DNA of 64,000 bases from assembly GCA_951406725.2 (NCBI GenBank), contig OX597823.1, positions 69,626,001 to 69,690,000 on the forward strand. The letters are read 5' to 3'. Origin of the DNA: Octopus vulgaris (lineage: Eukaryota). Below the pieces are notes generated by a model, which was not told the origin of the DNA, made no database searches, and was given only the letters and a program-made list of their open reading frames with translations. Every line of letters begins with the position of its first letter. Position 1 is the first letter of the stretch. The translations under genes were made by a program, and so were the position numbers. Shown in pieces: positions 11,878 to 55,489 of this stretch.

Positions 11878-12982
11878 AATTGAGATAGGGGTTGTAAATG
11901 CAACCCTCCATGGGATAACATATATCCAATATACTGCTAGTGAAGTACCCAACAAGGTTAATACATAAATGTTAAGGATTGCGATGCAATCAATTCATTT
12001 ACTGTATTATATGGGCAAAGGTAAAATGTTTTACCACAAATTCATAATACAAAATAAGAAAATGGAGAAATACATCTAAATCAAATATCAATTACCAGAT
12101 AATACTCAATCACATACTTTATTAAACCACCACATAAGAAACTATAGGGTCAAACATAAAAAAGTAGAGCAAAACAGTGCACATAAAGGAGTGTACATAA
12201 AAAAGTGTACATAAAAGAGTTACGTTATACAATAAGTAGAATATATATAAGAGAATATAAATATAAGTAAATATAAATATAAATATAGATTACGTCTTAC
12301 AGCTGTTTCGGCTATGTAGATAAGTATGTCTCATTTTACTTATATTAGCCTTTTATGGTAGGTCAATATGTAGTTATAAATGAGACATTTACAAAAATAT
12401 CATAAGGCCTCTTCAAGATTATGTGATATAAATCAGTCTACATATATACCCATATGGGTGTGGGTACATACCCACAATACATCATATACATATACGTATG
12501 AGTGCATATACTCACACTCCTATACATATAAATATATACATATACATAATGATATAAATAATATAAATTAGTAAACCTACATAAGCTCCACATTAAATGT
12601 TACAGTTTTTCAACTTAATATTGTGATAATAAACATACACATATTAATACCTAAATGCAGATATACAGAGCCAATAGTACATTATATTGATTCCTACAAA
12701 TTTCTAAAGTGTCATTAAAGTTAGCATCATTATCATTGTCAATACCATTAATGCTACCAATTTATATTTACTTATATTTATATTCTCTTATATATATTCT
12801 ACTTATTGTATAACATTACTCTTTTATGTACACTTTTTTATGTACACTCCTTTATGTGCACTGTTTTGCTCTACTTTTTTATGTTTAACCCTATAGTTTC
12901 TTATGTGGTGGTTTAATAAAGTATGTGATTGAGTATTATCTGGTAATTGATATTTGATTTAGATGTATTTCTCCATTTTCTT

Positions 12983-12988
<6 letters not shown>
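11876..12988 (-). mobile_element. Penelope-like element terminal remnant with ~228-bp inverted repeats and decayed hammerhead, inserted in (TA)n
   Basis: IR 12051-12278 / 12760-12987; HHR-like motif 12292-12420 on the minus strand; (TA)n on both sides. Confidence 0.65.
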
Positions 12989-13030
<42 letters not shown>

Positions 13031-21469: not shown

Positions 21470-22300
21470 GCTGCTGCTGTAGTTGTTGTTGATTTCGTTG
21501 TTGTTTGAAAAACGTTTGGTCATGCAGGCTGGTAGAAACAACGTTTCTCTAAATCAATAATCGATACACGATTAACAATGTTACCAAACTCCATTATTGG
21601 ATTTATTCAAGTTGAATATCTCATTTTTCATTTATTGCTTCTGATTTACAACTCTTCATACCAGTGTAAAATACTATATATCATAGAAAAACAGATCTGT
21701 CCATTAAGTTTTAAGAGATTTTCCAGCAATTTTGTCTGCGACTATTTTACATGAACACAGTATCATTATAACCCATTCTGAAACTAAAATTGCTTATTTT
21801 ATTACAGTACTCAGTATTTTTCCACTGTCACTAAAATATGTCATGATGTACAGCGGCTTAATCCAATGTTCATAGCTTAAAAGACTTTTCTTCTATGCCC
21901 ATCAGATAGATAGATAGAACATAGTTGATGGCATCATTTTTGTTCATGGGAAACTTTAATTTCAGCATTGCCAAATATAATAACAATAATATTGTACACC
22001 CTCATGCTCTTTGTTTTCGAGTAGACTGATTGGGATATACAAACGCATGTTAGGAACAGAAAGCATATTGATAGAATATGAACTATCAATCGTGTATTAC
22101 TATTACTATTACTCACGCCAGAGATGAATTCAAGCGTTGTGCTGATCGCCATTACATTGCATATGTCGAGTTATTATATCATACGACCTAGGTTCGGTTC
22201 CTTGTGGTAGATATTTCAAAGATTTTATTTATCTCGGGCTTTGCATTTTCTGATTCTGCATTGTTCTCTAGCCTCCGTATATACATGCATAGATACATAT

Positions 22301-22327
22301 TTACACACACACACACATGCAGTTATA

Positions 22328-22368
<41 letters not shown>

Positions 22369-22967
22369 GTGTTGTATGTATGTTTGCATGTATGTATGTA
22401 GGTGTATATATATTAGTATATACATACACATATATGTGGGTGTGGAGAGAGGGGAGAAAAGGAGAGATGCATGCATATAATGTGTGTGTACCTCTGTGTG
22501 TATGTGTGTACATCTGTGTGAGTGTGTGCGTGTGTTGTGTGTGTGCGTGCTGTGTGTTTATATTTATATGTATACATGCATGTATATGTATATATCGTAG
22601 ATAATTTCCAGAAAAAGAAGAATTTATTTTATATGATATATAATATAAATTTATTCTTCTTTGATGATCAAAGACATCCTACCAACCATTCTAACCATAT
22701 TTTCTCTAACCTCATTTTAGTTTCATTTATAGAAATAACCAACCGTATAGATGTGTTCTTCTACATTAATATCGCTGTCTAGTTTTGCGGGATATAAGGC
22801 TGGCAAATGCTATACTTATGACGCTTATTGCGTTAAAATGCGTCTCCTGTCGTTCTAGACAGTCTGTCGTCTTTTTGGCAGCTGTCCTCTTGTTTCTAGA
22901 AGAACAGTTCCTTAATGACATGTCAATTCTTGAGAATTATTTACACACACACACACATGCAGTTATA

Positions 22968-23008
<41 letters not shown>

Positions 23009-23577
23009 GTGTTGTATGTATGTTTGCATGTATGTATGTAGGTGTATATATATTAGTATATACATACACATATATGTGGGTGTGGAGAGAGGGGAGAAAA
23101 GGAGAGATGCATGCATATAATGTGTGTGTACCTCTGTGTGTATGTGTGTACATCTGTGTGAGTGTGTGCGTGTGTTGTGTGTGTGCGTGCTGTGTGTTTA
23201 TATTTATATGTATACATGCATGTATATGTATATATCGTAGATAATTTCCAGAAAAAGAAGAATTTATTTTATATGATATATAATATAAATTTATTCTTCT
23301 TTGATGATCAAAGACATCCTACCAACCATTCTAACCATATTTTCTCTAACCTCATTTTAGTTTCATTTATAGAAATAACCAACCGTATAGATGTGTTCTA
23401 CATTAATATCGCTGTCTAGTTTTGCGGGATATAAGGCTGGCAAATGCTATACTTATGACGCTTATTGCGTTAAAATGCGTCTCCTGTCGTTCTAGACAGT
23501 CTGTCGTCTTTTTGGCAGCTGTCCTCTTGTTTCTAGAAGAACAGTTCCTTAATGACATGTCAATTCTTGAGAATTAT
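22301..23577. repeat. Near-perfect 640-bp tandem duplication
   Basis: 22301-22940 matches 22941-23577 except a 3-bp deletion; TAT microhomology at the junction. Confidence 0.95.
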
Positions 23578-29481: not shown

Positions 29482-29660
29482 CGTGTGTATGCGTGTTTAT
29501 GTGTGTTTATGCGTGTATACAAGTGTATGTGTCATTATGCCTGTTTGTCGCCTACCACCGCTTGACAACCGATCTTGGTGTGATTATGTTCTGTAACTTG
29601 GCGGTTCGACAAAAGAAAAAACCGATAGAAAATATGCTAAGCTTTTAAAAAATAAGTCTT
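29266..29660 (+). mobile_element. tRNA-derived SINE with internal microsatellite
   Basis: ggcgtggctgtgtagtaagaagcttgcttc..gattcaatccc head; homologous to 9430-9860. Confidence 0.7.
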
Positions 29661-30049
29661 TTGGTAGTTCAACTGTATAATTATCCAACAATAATCTAAT
29701 GGTTTCATTTCTAAAGTCATGAAAGATGTTCGAATGAAGATGCAATGTTTCGAAATATACAGATATTTTTGACTGATTGTTTTCGGAAGGTGAATTAACA
29801 TATCTATGTTGTGTCTTTTGAAACTTCGATGTGTTTAAGGAATAGCTTCAGTATGATGCCTAAAATATCATGCACATTGTGAGCTTCAAATTCTAGACCA
29901 GCTCCTATCGGTCTATTATTCTATGCAGCGAAAGCATAGAGAAACTAAACGAATTACGCAAAAAACACTCCTCGGTGGAACAATCTAGTATATATGAGCA
30001 ATGTAACTAAACACGTACTGTTGGTGATTTTTTAAACTTCTTTGGCTAG

Positions 30050-48844: not shown

Positions 48845-49145
48845 GTAGGAGCACTCCGTCGGTTACGACGATCTGCTGATGCGATCTGCGGAACAGCTTG
48901 CTCGTGAAATTGGCGTGCAAGTGGCTGAGCACTCAACAGACTCATGTAACTTTAACGTAGCTCTCAGGGAGATTCAGAGTGTGACAAAGATGGCCCTTTG
49001 GAATACAGTCACAATTCATTCATGCCAGCTGATTAGATTGGATAAATAAAATGTCTTGCTCGTGGACACAACGTGTCGCCGAGAATCGAACTCTTGACCT
49101 TATGATCGTGAGCCGAATGCCCTAGCCACTAAGCCATACACCTTC
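48845..49145 (-). mobile_element. SINE (same family as 9144-9424)
   Basis: Minus-strand head atggcttagtggctagggcattcggctcacgatc..gagttcgattc with A/B boxes. Confidence 0.75.
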
Positions 49146-49638: not shown

Positions 49639-49788
49639 TGTGTGTGTGTGAATGAATATATATATACATATACAAGGCGCGTAAGATATGTGAGGACAGA
49701 TTTATGTTAATAAAAAACAGATTATAATAACAGATATTAAATCTATTTATCAAAAAATGCTATGTGGATAAAAATAAACCTTTTCTAT

Positions 49789-50019
49789 AACGTGAGGTAT
49801 ACTGCCGTCTCAATATGGCTAACCACTAATGGTGGGTGTTACTGTAGCTTGTAGCCCCAGGAGAACATCGTCTCCAGCTGGCTTTAGGCACACTTTCTGT
49901 GATCTTATGGTATTTGCAAAGGGAGTTCATCCTTCCCATGTCAACCTAAGTGATACGCACGGACTGCAGTTTCTAGGTTTTGACCTGTCATCAGCGTACG
50001 ACAATCACCGGTTTTCGAT
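49789..50019 (-). mobile_element. Retrozyme-like unit, part downstream of the Tx1 insertion
   Basis: Contains the HHR; 49792-49829 is directly repeated at 55451-55489. Confidence 0.8.
49950..50009 (-). ncRNA. Type I hammerhead ribozyme (retrozyme/Penelope type, palindromic UGCA loop III)
   Basis: GGTGAT-tgt-CGTACG-CTGATGA-c-AGGT caaa ACCT-a-GAAAC-TGCA-GTC^CGTGCG-t-ATCACT; predicted cut between 49962 and 49961. Confidence 0.85.
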
Positions 50020-50271
50020 TAATTCTTTATTATGATTATAAAATCGGTACATAGAAGAAAAATACAGGACATACATACAAAAAACAGTTAAGTGGTTCGT
50101 TTAAAAATTTCCAAAATATATGGATTATTCATTATACAAAAAAACTGTATTTAAATTTTCCTTTGCATTGACTAATATAACATTACATTAGATTGAAATC
50201 TTACCGAAATATTTTCAACCCCGGCAACCTATAAGGTCCCGCAGCTTTCCTTTCCTCTTCTCCATCCATAG

Positions 50272-53200
50272 TTAAACTGGGTTTCTGACACCCACTGTTT
50301 TCGCCACTTCCTTCCATCTTTTTTCATACACACCTCGTGGGAAGGTCTTCTTTTCCAGCCCCATTTTGCTCTTCAGATGATATCTGAAGTAAGTGAGCAA
50401 GCCGGGGCCTGAGACAAAGGATCCTATTGCGACTCCTTCCATTCTTGTACGCCACATGCATTCTTTTACTACTGCAACCGTGCAATGAAAACATGCCTCA
50501 CCTTCCTTCGAGAGTCCAGTTGGCGGTATCATCTTAATCATAGACTCAGCCGACAGCTGTACTCGTCCCAGATGCGATAACACGTGTTCTGTGTAACTTA
50601 TCAAGTCTGACAACTGCCGACAGTGTACAAAAGCGTGCTGGACGGTTTCATCGTCCAACCCGCATATTGGACATGTCGGTGGCACTGAAATTCCGTGCCG
50701 CGATAACTTCTCGCGAACAGGTAAAGCATTCCTATAACACTGCCAGGCCAGGGATCTTTGGAAATTATCCAAATACCCCGTCCTAAAAGTCTTTTTAAAC
50801 AGGTTGGTAAGCTGGTCTTCGTCGAGCCCCAGAGCCCCTCCTAGGACGTCGTCGTTCTTTGCCTCTACAAGCCTGCTATAAAATACCGAGGTGGTATTTC
50901 CGCAGCCGGCCTTGCCCGCCTTGTGAATCAGCATGAGTGCCTGTCGGCACTCCTTTTGCCATAAAGTCAGATTCCGTCTTTTGATGCAACCGGGTTTTAA
51001 ATTCACTAAGGAAGCCGGTCTCGGGAAAAATTCCCCTGCCAGCGGACTCCACACCTTATCACCCTCCAGGTGGTGCCAGAGATGCTTCAGCCTCAACGCA
51101 TGTCTGCGCATCATCAACCAAGGCATTCCTAACCCACCCTTTAACGGTTCCTGGCAGCAAACGGGGCGCTTCACAAGTGGCTTTCCTCCCTTCCACAAAA
51201 AGCGGAAAAGGATTCGCTCCAACTTTCTAAGCCATGAATCGGGGCAAGGGACAACGGTCAGGCGGTAAGTGATTACAGATGCAATGAACATCTGTACCAC
51301 CTCCGCCCTTCCTTTCAAGGACAGAAACCCTCCGGACCAGGTCCGTACTATGGCCTCCACCTTGTCCGTCACCTCACTCCAATTCCTCTCCGTTTGGGAG
51401 TCTGGCCCAAACCAAACTCCTAGCAACTTAACAGGACCATCTGTCCAGTGTACCAGGGCACTAGACGATATCGACTTGCTCCTCCAGGTGCCGAGGCGTA
51501 AGCCAATCGACTTGTCCTTGTTAACTTTTGCTCCTACCACCGCCTCGTATCCTCTGATAGCATCTTCTACACAAGGTAGCTGAGCCTCATTGGACACGAT
51601 GAGGTTGACGTCATCCGCAAAAGCAGAAACCGTCCTCCCGCCTCCGATTTCATCCGGGTTACTTCCCAGCCTCTCCAACTTTCGCAGCAATGGCTCGAGA
51701 GCCAACACGTACAAAAGTGGTGACAAGGGGCACCCTTGACGAACTGAACATTCGATCGAAAACGGTTCCGTTAGGTAACCGTTTATCTGGACGGTGGACT
51801 TGATGCTGCTATACATAGCGGAGATCCACCCGTGAAATTCAGGGCCCAGTCCAGCCGTTTCGAGGACCGTCGCCAGGTACTTATGGTCTACCCTATCGAA
51901 CGCTTTACTTTGGTCTAAATGGACCATTACCCCGCCCTTGCCGGTTAATTTACCCACCCTATCTAAGGTGTAGCGTATAAGGTAAAGATTTCCTGGATCG
52001 ACCTGCCTAGAATTGCACATGTCTGTGCTTTCCCTACAAGTTTCTCCACGACAGTCGTCAACCTTTTTGCCAACACCTTGGCCAAAATCTTTAACTCTAC
52101 ATTAAGTAGAGTTATGGGCCTGTAATTGCTAATGTTATCCCCCTTGCTCGGGTCTTTCTGGATTAGCGTCACCACTCCCCGGCTTACAGAACTGGAAATT
52201 CTCCCGTTCTGCTGCCAGTTCGCGTAGACGCCTGCCAGTATTCCCCCGAACAAGTCCGGCATACTTTGATAAAACTCGTAGGGCAGACCATCCAACCCCG
52301 GCGAGTACCCCCTCTATCTCCGCGGGAGTGATCGCTCCTTCACAGCACTCGACCTCACGCCCCGAGAGCCGTGGTCCGCCGGCTAGGAAGTCCTTTAAGG
52401 CCCTCCCCCGCTCCAGCGAACCCCCCTCCCCCGAACGTGCGGGTGAAATGCTGGTGAAGAAACTTTTGCATCTCCTCCTGTCCATAGATCTTGTGTCCCT
52501 GTTCGTCAGTTAAAGACTTGATTGAAGCTTTGTTACCTCTCTGACTCTCCACTCGACGGGCCCATCCGGCAACGTTAATACCTTTTCGTTTCCCTGCGCG
52601 TAGCTTAGCTCTAACTCTGCAACCTTCGTGTTTGGAGTTAAGGTGACGGTACAATACCGTCCTTGCCGCCATCATTCCGGATGCAGTGCCAGATTCCATT
52701 GCCTCGTTTAGATTCTTAACTAAATCGTCCTCTATCCTATCTAACCTTAGCTGATTGCTAAATCTAATGGACTCTGAACGAATGGCTCTTTTGGGGGAGT
52801 GCCACCATCTATTGTTAGTGATGGTGCCACATAATGCCCTCTGTACTAACACCTTAATCCGGGTACGGAAGTCTTCACAATTCAAAATAGACTTGTTCAG
52901 CTTCCAGTACCCGGGTCCCTGTCTATGGCACTTATCTAATTGCACCCTACAAGTCACAAATGTGTGATCCGTGTAAGGCACAATGTGAAACTGTGGACAA
53001 CTAAACATATCCTTATCTTTTCCTAACGAATATCCTATCTATATACGATCTGCGTGAGCCGTCGTTGTTACTCCACGTCCACTGTGGAACGCTCGGCTCA
53101 TCCAGTCAATAACGGTCTACTAGATTAAAGCTCTCTAGTAGACCCTTGAGGCTAGGCTTCCCCTTCCTATTGGTTGAGCCAACACTGTCGACCCGCGCTT

Positions 53201-53628
53201 CGAGGACAGTGTTAAAGTCCCCTACTAAGACTACCGTTTTCGACGTCACTAAAAAGTGCTCCAGATTCTGAAAAAAACCCGACTGCCTACACTCATTCGG
53301 AGCGTATACAGCTCTAACCTGAAGGACTGTTTACTTACGTGGGTTACATCCAGAACGACCAGCCTGCCTTCTGGGTCCAGAAAGACAGTACTTACCTGCA
53401 AGTCCAAGCTATTCCTGATAAGGACTGCCACGCCCCTTCCTCCTCCTCGGCTAGGAGAAATAAATTTCTCGAAACCATTTAGAAGAGACGAGAACGCTTG
53501 GCCCCGTTCATCTTGGACTCGGTTACAATAGCTACGTCAACTCCGTGTGTCGTGAGGTCGTTCAGGAGACAAATTTGTTTCCATTTCGACCCCATTCCAC
53601 GCACATTCACACAACCCAGCTTTGCCAT
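50272..53628 (-). pseudogene. Tx1 ORF2: APE endonuclease, reverse transcriptase, zf-RVT (frameshifted)
   Basis: MAKLGCVNVRG, YAPN, GDFN, TDH; DGLPYEFY, YRPITLLN, LDQSKAFDRV, VRQGCPLSP, FADD; CPICG..ETVQHAFVHC; split across several frames. Confidence 0.93.
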
Positions 53629-53652
53629 TGTCGGAGAGAGAGAAAAAAAATC

Positions 53653-55077
53653 TTACGGTTGGGACAGGGAGCATGACAGTTTAAATCTGCATGCTTCTCT
53701 TTCTTCCTCCCTTGTGGTCGTAGCTGCAGGGCTCTTAACCGGCGTTGCCATCGGGCTCTGGGTAGGTGTGGTTGCCGGGGTTATAGTAAGTTTGCCCTCC
53801 AGTATTTCGTTAGTTACGTCTCTGATAAGGTTATTTTTAAAATGTTCTTGGAGTGTTTTTTCCTTCCACTCGTCTTCCTTTATTTTTGCAAAACGAGTGG
53901 TCGACTTAGTGTCTGCAGACTTACTGAATAATTTCAGTTTTGAAAATTTTAAATACTTAAACACTCTATCGTTCCTCTCGTCGAATGCTACAATCTTTTC
54001 ATTTTTTTAATCAATTTTTTCCAATCTTGTTTTATGGGGAGGGGCTTGGCGAACTGTGTTCCAATGAATACAGTGCCGTGGGGGTAGGGCTGGGGAATTT
54101 GTTTTGTATGTATCTCTGCGGTGTTTGCTGATTTTTTCTTTGTTTGGGGAGGGGAGTCCAGGGTATTTTCTTTTTTCTTTTGTGTGTCACCTGTGTAAAT
54201 TCCATTTGTTCATTTTTATCTTCCGTTTCGATTCCCTTCCTCGTCGCAGTCTTGGGGTCTTTTTCCGCCTTTTCTTTTTCTGTGTTTGAAGCACTTTGAG
54301 GAGGGGCTTCGCTGTTTTTTCTTTTTTTTTATGCAGTTCGAGCGGACGTGACCCTTTTCACCACATTTGAAACACCTAGGTCTGCGACCCTCCACTGACA
54401 CTCTCATTGTAATTCCCTCCTCAATAAATACCCTATCGGGTAAGTTTTCTAGCACATTATTTTCTGCTTGAACGAGGAGTTCGAGCGCTTTTCCCTTCCA
54501 GTTTACCTCCTCTTTCCTTTAAATCTGCAGAATTGAGACTTTCTGCTCTACGTCGTGCAGAACCGCCGCTGCTACCCACATTATATCATATCCTCTTGGT
54601 ATGTCTTCCACATATAGTTTCGCAGTTCTTTTGCCCATATAGGTAGGTAGTAACATGATATCCTCACTTTTTAAGGTCATCGATGAAATTTCTCTTGCCA
54701 CATCAGCCGAGTCGAAATGTGCTTCAACGGTAGCGCTGCGAGCACCTCGACCGACGTAGCGAATTTTGCTCCACACCGGGGACAAGCACTTCTCTACTAT
54801 TTCGTTCTTCACGTCCATTATTTTTTTCTCTTTGTTACTGTAAACCTGCCTTGGTCTTTATTTCCTGTAATATCGCTTGCGGCGGTACCAGTTTTATTCC
54901 GTTGCCTTCCTTTTTGACCAAGTTCCGGTATTCGAACAACTGTTCTATTCTGAATTCCACTTCCGTTACGGTTCCGCCCACTGCGGCCGAAAAAGACTGT
55001 TTTCTAACCTCGATATCCTTCTGTTCACCTTTTCCCATCACGGGAAAGTCGCTCCTCGACGCCAAGTCGAACTCCAT
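53653..55077 (-). pseudogene. Tx1 ORF1 gag-like protein (frameshifted)
   Basis: Fragments 54835-55077, 54519-54818, 54216-54455 (CFKCGEKGHVRSNC CCHC knuckle) and 53653-53964, ending just upstream of the ORF2 ATG. Confidence 0.85.
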
Positions 55078-55311
55078 TTCTCAAATTATGAGAACCAATT
55101 TTTCAAAAAAATTACCCCGAAGGTAATAACAATGTTTATACACAGAATTTTCAGCCCCGTAAGGCGAAAATTACTGTCACACAACGGACAACTGTTCAAA
55201 TTCACGAGCAAACACAAACAACGACGAACAAAAAACGAACTCACTCAACAAAATAGGCAGCTAACTTCTCAATACGCAGATGAAAGAGGGGTCCCTAGAC
55301 GAGTGACAAAC

Positions 55312-55489
55312 CACCGGTTTTCGATGAAAGGGGTCCCAATGCAAATACTTATATCGTTTTTCCAGTAACTTTTCGTCACTGATCTCGAAAAACTGTATGC
55401 AAGCAATGATAAATCTCTGAACGCGGTATAAACTGTAACTGCACGACAATGTGAGGTATACTTGCCACCTCAATATGGCTAACCACTAA
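55312..55489 (-). mobile_element. Retrozyme-like unit, part upstream of the Tx1 insertion
   Basis: Begins at the TSD and ends with the ~39-bp terminal redundancy gtgaggtata..aatatggctaaccactaa. Confidence 0.8.

Follow-up and report, generated by a model that had tools for sequence, protein, structure and literature searches.

We studied a Tx1-type long interspersed nuclear element (LINE) of Octopus vulgaris that lies inside a repeat carrying a hammerhead ribozyme (HHR). The window, i.e., the whole stretch of 64,000 bp that was analyzed, corresponds to G000:C10:69626001-69690000 in a genome of 2.80 Gb and 227 contigs. The LINE is a full-length, decayed copy of 5,292 bp, assigned here to family 1, and occupies positions 50020..55311 of the negative strand. 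Identical 14-mers (CACCGGTTTTCGAT) at 50006-50019 and 55312-55325 bracket it, and excision of the LINE plus one copy of this target-site duplication (TSD) restored a contiguous unit of 353 bp, similar to a retrozyme (see below). The downstream half of this unit extends over 49789..50019 and the upstream half, or promoter part, over 55312..55489, both in the negative strand; the first ~41 bp of the upstream half repeat the 3' end of the unit. The 3' TSD copy (50006..50019, negative strand, ATCGAAAACCGGTG) corresponds to positions +1 to +14 of the predicted retrozyme transcript, and the 5' copy (55312..55325, negative strand) to a predicted RNA leader with its +1 at 55325. The LINE terminates in AATAAAGAATTA without a polyA tail, and an AATAAA located 6 nt short of its end (50026..50031, negative strand) is kept in sister lineages. 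Contigs from runs X1, X19 and X20 span the target site without the insertion. An earlier note on this DNA had proposed a Tx1 LINE inside an HHR unit, on the same strand as the ribozyme, lacking polyA and ending 58 nt before the predicted cut; the coordinates, strand, TSD and restored unit that it gave all hold, and so does the overlap of the TSD with distal stem I, whose distal helix draws on the last TSD bases. The extension of the TSD by gacaa suggested in the same note had to be discarded, as these bases are the variable 5' start of the LINE itself (GTTTGTCACTCG / TTTTGACTCG).

Two open reading frames (ORFs), both broken in the window copy, were recognized in the LINE: ORF1 (53653..55077, negative strand), with a CCHC zinc knuckle, and ORF2 (50272..53628, negative strand), carrying an apurinic/apyrimidinic endonuclease (APE), a reverse transcriptase (RT) and a zf-RVT domain, which is open over 1,148 aa in sister copies. 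In the window copy, whose longest open stretch is 609 aa, Pfam searches found RVT_1, zf-RVT and zf-CCHC; the APE domain (Exo_endo_phos) was found in the sister copy L091. None of the 46 family-1 loci examined had an open ORF2, the longest frame being 1,037 aa. The 29 closest homologs bear no informative name, and the best PDB match of ORF2 was L1 ORF2p. The Pfam domains and this match agree with the domain set of Tx1 elements: APE, RT and a C-terminal zinc-binding domain in ORF2, and a CCHC ORF1. ORF2 of the sister copy L290 scored 461 and 405 bits against two U2-inserted metagenome elements (L222 and L217, respectively) and 231 bits against human L1 ORF2p, which is consistent with placement in Tx1, the closeness to Tx1/Keno-type elements over L1 proper being judged here by bit scores and not by a tree. 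At C9:59.20-59.25M, C5:29.18-29.20M and C27:38.30M, young Tx1 copies, several of them with intact ORF2, were observed in head-to-tail arrays with a period of ~5.28 kb and at most 9 members.

The genome-wide collection of family-1 3' ends, obtained with an exact 24-nt 3'-end pattern, had 42 members (the reversed control pattern gave 0). As many as 39 of them adjoined the HHR unit (36 by rule and 3 by eye), the other 3 adjoined the 5' end of another Tx1, i.e., they were tandem insertions, and no unrelated flank was found; a fixed site in a multicopy repeat with 14-bp TSDs is also the target specificity expected of a Tx1 element. Likewise, the upstream half of the unit preceded 29 of 30 family-1 5' ends, the remaining one being preceded by another Tx1. 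The TSDs were specific for the unit subtype on both sides, and 5'-truncated copies had the TSD and the upstream half as well. The insertion position was constant within 3 nt, and the flanking units belonged to divergent subfamilies, with LINEs 93-97% identical to each other. The sites themselves read ATCG at +1 to +4 in 41 of 42 cases and GG at +11/+12 in 37-38 of 42. Family 2, which is 83% identical to family 1, showed 19 of 30 3' ends at the unit, 5 in tandem, 4 at U2 small nuclear RNA (snRNA) genes and 2 at other sites. Among ten more divergent relatives six adjoined HHR units, five of these of a divergent type C, and families 1, 2, 2C and D were all located in HHR units. These results bear out the site-specific parasitism of a retrozyme-like HHR repeat that the earlier note had proposed on a single locus, and extend it to sister families. 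At least one further Tx1 family has ends stacked at the same site, downstream in L166, L189 and L190 and upstream in L199, L206, L214, L215 and L280.

The hammerhead of the unit is of type I and extends over 49950..50008 (negative strand), with the core CUGAUGA at 49994-49988 followed by GAAA and GUC, and a predicted cut at 49962/49961. Stem I presents 5 bp plus a distal helix, stem II has 4 bp closed by a C.A pair at its base, and the palindromic stem III (ACUGCAGU) has 2 bp and a palindromic loop. An Rfam scan of 49760-50100 scored no HHR, and the fold of the 76-nt HHR sequence reached a z value of only -1.81; therefore, the assignment is based on the motif and on covariation among copies. 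A motif-plus-stem filter gave 70 distinct HHR parses across the examined loci, a few of them probably due to chance, in which stems I and II differ in sequence with retention of pairing. Their cores were CUGAnGA (35), UUGAnGA (14), CCGAnGA (10), UUGAnAA (9, a U3-A8 covariation) and UCGAnGA (2); the cut triplet was GUC in 66, stem III was palindromic in 53 and C.A occupied the base of stem II in 33. No ribozyme family, such as an R2-like one encoded at the element's 5' end, appeared among the 150 of 167 Rfam matches listed for the window, with the reservation that Rfam misses the HHR too; the whole-window matches were microsatellite noise.

With its 353 bp and 70 covarying parses the target agrees with the description of non-LTR (long terminal repeat) retrozymes, non-coding units of 170-400 nt with a type I HHR. 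In the parts of PMC7229834 at hand, animal retrozyme HHRs are described as having a stem III that is short and palindromic and a stem II with a mismatch at its base (as in axolotl HHR_Amex2), and the unit resembles them in these features as well as in its size of ~350 bp. A first look gave 2,445 unit candidates, of which the 30 best loci were inspected: 28 were LINE-free with a contiguous site. They showed variable 5' truncation, inverted pieces and many monomers, with head-to-tail multimers in a minority (e.g., L042, L053 and L054); copies of the HHR repeat were mostly dispersed 1-2.5-mers. Several copies (L103, L105, L106, L112 and L123) often stop directly in (TA)n near +230 or +280. This copy pattern resembles that of Penelope-mobilized retrozymes as presented in the available part of bioRxiv 10.64898/2026.07.22.740005; unlike the described non-LTR retrozymes, the unit had no Penelope partner in the loci inspected, and its dispersed copies have inverted 5' pieces. 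The unit was absent from the 30 best GIY-YIG loci inspected (150 of 6,136 candidates were scored), and Penelope-like fragments near L070, L102 and L115 were rejected as partners, being unlinked or on the opposite strand. An abundant Penelope-like family (L137, L142 and others) with open frames of 781 aa carries tandem repeats of ~60 bp in the 3' region and lacks a downstream HHR motif. Neither Tx1 nor octopus is mentioned in the portions of PMC7229834 and bioRxiv 10.64898/2026.07.22.740005 that were at hand.

A putative proximal sequence element (PSE), ATCAGTG, lies 58 nt upstream of the TSD start (55377..55383, negative strand). The motif shares sequence and spacing with the U1 and U2 genes of this genome: ATCAGT was present at -59 in all three distinct U2 upstream regions, and ATCAGT or ATCATC at -56 to -58 in 8 of the 12 U1 loci examined (17 were found), the other 4 looking like pseudogenes. 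Because ATCAGTG sits at the snRNA-promoter distance known from U1 and U2, the TSD would represent positions +1 to +14, and the LINE would thus be inserted at the predicted +1 of an snRNA-type promoter within the retrozyme unit. One U1 copy without PSE (L256) is preceded by 13 nt that almost repeat its 5' end. The TSD began 57-59 nt past the ATCAGT element, and 53 of 58 full-length 5' junctions had the motif at -57 to -62; of the other five, one had the motif at -49 and the remaining four, at U2 or in tandems, were anchored on the leader. It was also visible upstream in all six truncated copies that were printed. Occupied unit junctions presented the PSE-like motif in 53 of 54 cases vs. 17 of 29 empty units (Fisher p = 5e-6), the empty set being the 30 loci nearest to the subtype of the window and not a genome-wide sample; a lenient recount gave 59 of 60 vs. 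19 of 29 (p = 3e-5). The empty units without motif had lost it by truncation or deletion (10) or had two mismatches (2). The LINE holds 30 runs of four or more T, some right behind the leader, which argues against RNA polymerase III and for RNA polymerase II. The choice between the two polymerases rests on these T-runs only, since the U6 comparison yielded a single, pseudogene-like pattern match without PSE.

Sister lineages revealed further targets. The four U2-adjoining 3' ends of family 2 lay exactly at position 1 of the Rfam U2 model, and a fifth copy was in tandem within the same array. These U2 copies form a young lineage; they share 99.8% identity in their last 1.3 kb, occur in two arrays (C3 and C23) with dissimilar promoters (87 matches among 144 aligned bases), and are nested among retrozyme-B and retrozyme-A2 copies. 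Their endonuclease DNA is 98.2-99.0% identical to that of three retrozyme-targeting copies. The genome has 57 U2 5' ends, vs. the 2,445 unit candidates. Twenty other sister 3' ends, chosen for diversity out of 150 protein matches, included 3 in HHR units of type D, 5 in a target named E plus 1 tandem, 3 in two satellites with a TATA box and an initiator-like (Inr) sequence, and 2 in a C27-type repeat; 5 had unique flanks and 1 could not be assigned. In both tandem satellites (~510 and ~600 bp; L296/L334 and L305/L335) the sequence TATAAAAG ends 22 nt before a TSD of 15-17 bp, and both carry the Inr-like CACTC; no ribozyme was recognized in them. Between the E lineage and those on the two satellites, which use three unrelated targets, the endonuclease DNA is 98.7-98.9% identical. 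Target E is a dispersed repeat flanking L290, L309, L311 and L313, and no Rfam match was found in L289 and L291. Among the remaining loci, L332 has no endonuclease, and L186 was set aside as a rearranged 3' fragment and not a clean insertion. HHR targeting was found on both sides of the deepest split and thus is probably ancestral in this clade, given the midpoint root on which the split depends, as the outgroup protein tree lost the family-2 rows. In other organisms, 39 metagenome loci contained only distant relatives, and Rfam scans of 15 of them found 2 U2, 1 U1 and no HHR. Two of the metagenome Tx1-like elements (L220 and L225) lie ~30 nt inside U1 snRNA genes.

The 5' junctions at U2 suggest where the RNA of the element begins. 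All four have the order U2 promoter (or preceding copy), U2 14-mer TSD, ATCGCTACGTGGTG and element, where ATCGCTACGTGGTG is a 14-mer of the retrozyme type-B target sequence. Since copies at U2 carry a retrozyme 14-mer, the donor RNA would have begun at the retrozyme ATCG. Within family 1, 20 of 33 TSD pairs agree; in 10 of the 13 discordant pairs the 5' copy is nearer to the A-type leader, with several differences at subtype-diagnostic positions and with the flank further upstream unconverted.

From these observations we propose a promoter-capturing Tx1 clade in which RNA ends derived from the target assist target choice, a reading to which we assign a probability of about 0.65. The element would insert in the sense of its target, precisely where transcription of a multicopy unit begins, in this case the HHR retrozyme repeat. 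According to the TSDs at the junctions, nicks staggered near +1 and +14/+16 would duplicate the first 14-16 transcribed bases. A full-length copy would then be transcribed from the host promoter, as an RNA that starts with the target-derived leader (shown indirectly, see above) and whose 3' end would reach into target sequence and may be shortened by the HHR at +58 or close to the AAUAAA of the element. To judge by the correlations described above, target choice would require an intact upstream promoter and a short ATCG-like sequence, and RNA ends or promoter-bound factors may steer the nick. Target-derived RNA ends would probably allow lineages with near-identical endonucleases to settle on U2, satellites or retrozyme subtypes. 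As an abundant repeat with a predicted promoter, the retrozyme would be both the ancestral target and the commonest one, and the ribozyme in it is probably incidental or secondary and not itself targeted. A bolder and so far tentative version, to which we give somewhat less than even odds, is a clade of LINEs that home to start sites and are re-targeted in cis by the ends of their own RNA: insertion at +1 would supply both the host promoter and the RNA ends that steer progeny to like start sites, and a single chance jump that takes an element from a retrozyme to a TATA satellite or to U2 would found a new target-specific lineage, its endonuclease being practically unchanged. Where the target is a retrozyme, the trailer may in addition be cut to 58 nt by the host hammerhead.

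Several points weigh against the promoter-capture proposal. Start site, read-through and HHR cleavage are predictions from sequence, and none of the 12 U1 loci has a LINE 3' end in front in spite of their PSE. No PSE or TATA was found at four junctions of target E, which is the target of the youngest intact lineage, and the TATA at the C27 target is weak; moreover, 5 of the 20 sister 3' ends lie in unique flanks, and 7 of the 20 5' ends could not be located. The U2-lineage endonuclease does differ by 3 amino acids from that of one A2 copy, and the comparison between lineages took in the endonuclease only. The shift of the 5' TSD toward the A-type leader is not significant by itself (p = 0.09). 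Four of the 42 family-1 copies keep the full element end followed by 2-3 extra target bases, for which a template stopping at the element terminus is a better explanation than a trailer annealed in register. The lineages of family 1 were not faithful to a retrozyme subtype (15 changes against 15.8 when shuffled; the tree, poorly resolved, comprised 27 copies, 16 having been left out by name as truncated, deleted or short and others having been lost to the end pattern), so that strict RNA homing within retrozymes is not supported. Those of family 2 did show such fidelity (13 changes against 18.7, with 0 of 200 shuffles), a result inflated by near-copies and by two partly non-homologous rows. 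Finally, the near-invariant ATCG indicates that the sequence component of target choice is real.

This last point is the core of one alternative, the ordinary endonuclease specificity of Tx1 elements, by which the APE would read TC|ATCG..GGTG in an abundant repeat and promoter capture would be a by-product. The conservation of ATCG and of GG at family-1 sites agrees with it, as do the presence of ATCGC..GG in U2 and the sparing of U1, which reads ATAC, and target choice of Tx1 elements is credited mainly to the endonuclease in the part of PMC4494074 at hand. We consider it unlikely nonetheless: units that lack the PSE and retain the nearest ~25-50 nt of upstream sequence are frequent among the empty ones and almost absent among the occupied ones, endonucleases 98-99% identical serve lineages with unrelated targets, and in spite of a short and degenerate motif none of the 42 ends fell outside the unit or a tandem.

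An equally improbable alternative is the one favored in the earlier note, in which the LINE targets the HHR boundary in order that flanking hammerheads excise an RNA with target-homologous ends, possibly a circular one. The fixed position 58 nt upstream of the cut, the lack of polyA, the covariation of HHR cores and stems across subfamilies (including the 53 palindromic stems III and the 9 U3-A8 cores) and the occurrence in HHR units of families 1, 2, 2C and D, which fall to either side of the deepest split in the midpoint-rooted tree, all speak in its favor. An upstream HHR does not set the 5' end, however: one on the same strand was present at just 8 of 42 5' junctions; the target sequence carried at the 5' end is a 14-nt leader from ATCG, not ~295 nt, and a duplicated 58-nt trailer was found at no junction. 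There are sister lineages that do well on U2 and on satellites in which no ribozyme was recognized, and the terminal AATAAA is conserved in HHR-targeting and non-HHR-targeting lineages alike, which would offer a ribozyme-free route to the 3' end. The release of a unit RNA by flanking HHRs is considered unlikely and its circularization found no support here; as for the borrowing of the HHR to define transcript ends, it is not supported as the organizing principle, and trimming by the HHR at +58 is the part that still may apply. That the HHR unit is merely the terminal repeat of the element, or an abundant repeat hit by chance, might be suggested by its presence next to nearly all copies and by its 2,445 candidates; this is extremely improbable, and both versions are excluded by the LINE-free contiguous sites in 28 of 30 unit loci, by the subtype-specific TSDs on both sides, also present with the upstream half in 5'-truncated copies, and by a position fixed within 3 nt in flanks that are divergent as compared with the 93-97% identical LINEs.

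Other repeats were observed elsewhere in the window. Positions 12047-12991 hold an element resembling a miniature inverted-repeat transposable element, with terminal inverted repeats of 232 bp that are 98% complementary and 481 bp between them; paired matches at 22273-23236 indicate an apparent local duplication of ~640 bp; pieces at 29626-29914 resemble the GIY-YIG Penelope-like element of this genome; and 49060-49140 (negative strand) is the tRNA-like head of a short interspersed nuclear element (SINE), a similar sequence of which splits a family-2 copy in L119.

Site-specific Tx1 families on other repeats and on U2, as well as the promoter-positioned elements Ty3 and TRE5-A, are already known from the accessible parts of PMC4494074, PMC4640811 and PMC5911963. 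In the literature searched, which did not extend to Repbase, subscription papers or the supplements of PMC4494074, we found no Tx1 that targets hammerheads, retrozymes or the +1 of snRNA genes; a term search in the available text of the O. vulgaris repeat paper (PMC13282606) gave no mention of ribozymes. Hammerhead retrozymes would thus be a new target class for site-specific LINEs, and the +1 of snRNA-type and TATA-type promoters a new site rule for them, with a promoter and start site predicted for an invertebrate retrozyme. Target switching appears to have been caught in progress, with endonuclease DNA 98-99% identical on unrelated targets and a fossil leader that gives the direction from retrozyme to U2. 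The specificity of APE-type LINEs is usually credited to the endonuclease, and in this clade the contributions of protein, promoter and RNA ends could be separated by swaps, using the intact 1,148-aa copies; if RNA ends do steer targeting, this would bear on RNA-programmed gene insertion.

R2 elements carry their own hepatitis delta virus-like ribozyme at the 5' end and use a restriction-like endonuclease. Here, unlike R2, the ribozyme is part of the target, on the 3' side of the element, and a host start site would supply the leader, for which no ribozyme would be needed. The likeness to R2, as far as the available part of PMC3774820 goes, would be in co-transcription without a promoter of its own and in a target-derived 5' RNA, postulated there to anneal and prime second-strand synthesis. 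The target-specific Tx1 LINEs in the main text of PMC4494074 include Tx1 in piggyBac Tx1D and Tx1-Mar in Mariner-N4, and others in LTR elements, Harbinger, satellites, U5, 5S and microsatellites; HHR or Penelope targets are not among them, and the supplements may list more. Our clade resembles these LINEs in APE-RT, CCHC ORF1, a fixed site in a repeat, similar TSD length and tandem self-insertion, and differs in the HHR retrozyme target at a predicted +1 and in near-identical sisters on unrelated targets. U2 is also the target of Keno (Tx1) and Utopia (PMC4640811, in the part available), and the closest labelled relatives of our clade are U2-inserted APE elements from metagenomes. Upstream of those relatives ~27 nt of U2 are left, U2 resumes near +37, and they have polyA tails, whereas the lineage described here is at +1, with a 14-bp TSD and no polyA. 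Because its U2 insertions are at +1, and not at the internal site of Keno (3' flank near +37), it is not Keno. Newt satellite 2, an HHR repeat cited in the accessible text of PMC2220036, is reported to have an snRNA-type RNA polymerase II promoter; one of snRNA type is predicted from sequence for the octopus unit. Finally, the promoter positions the integration of Ty3, within 1-4 nt of the transcription start site, and of Dictyostelium TRE5-A, an L1-clade APE element whose ORF1 binds TFIIIB (both in the available part of PMC5911963), a likeness to our clade; those systems use RNA polymerase III tRNA promoters and TFIIIB, whereas here the starts would be of snRNA and TATA type, 14-16 transcribed bases are duplicated and the link with the PSE is a correlation.

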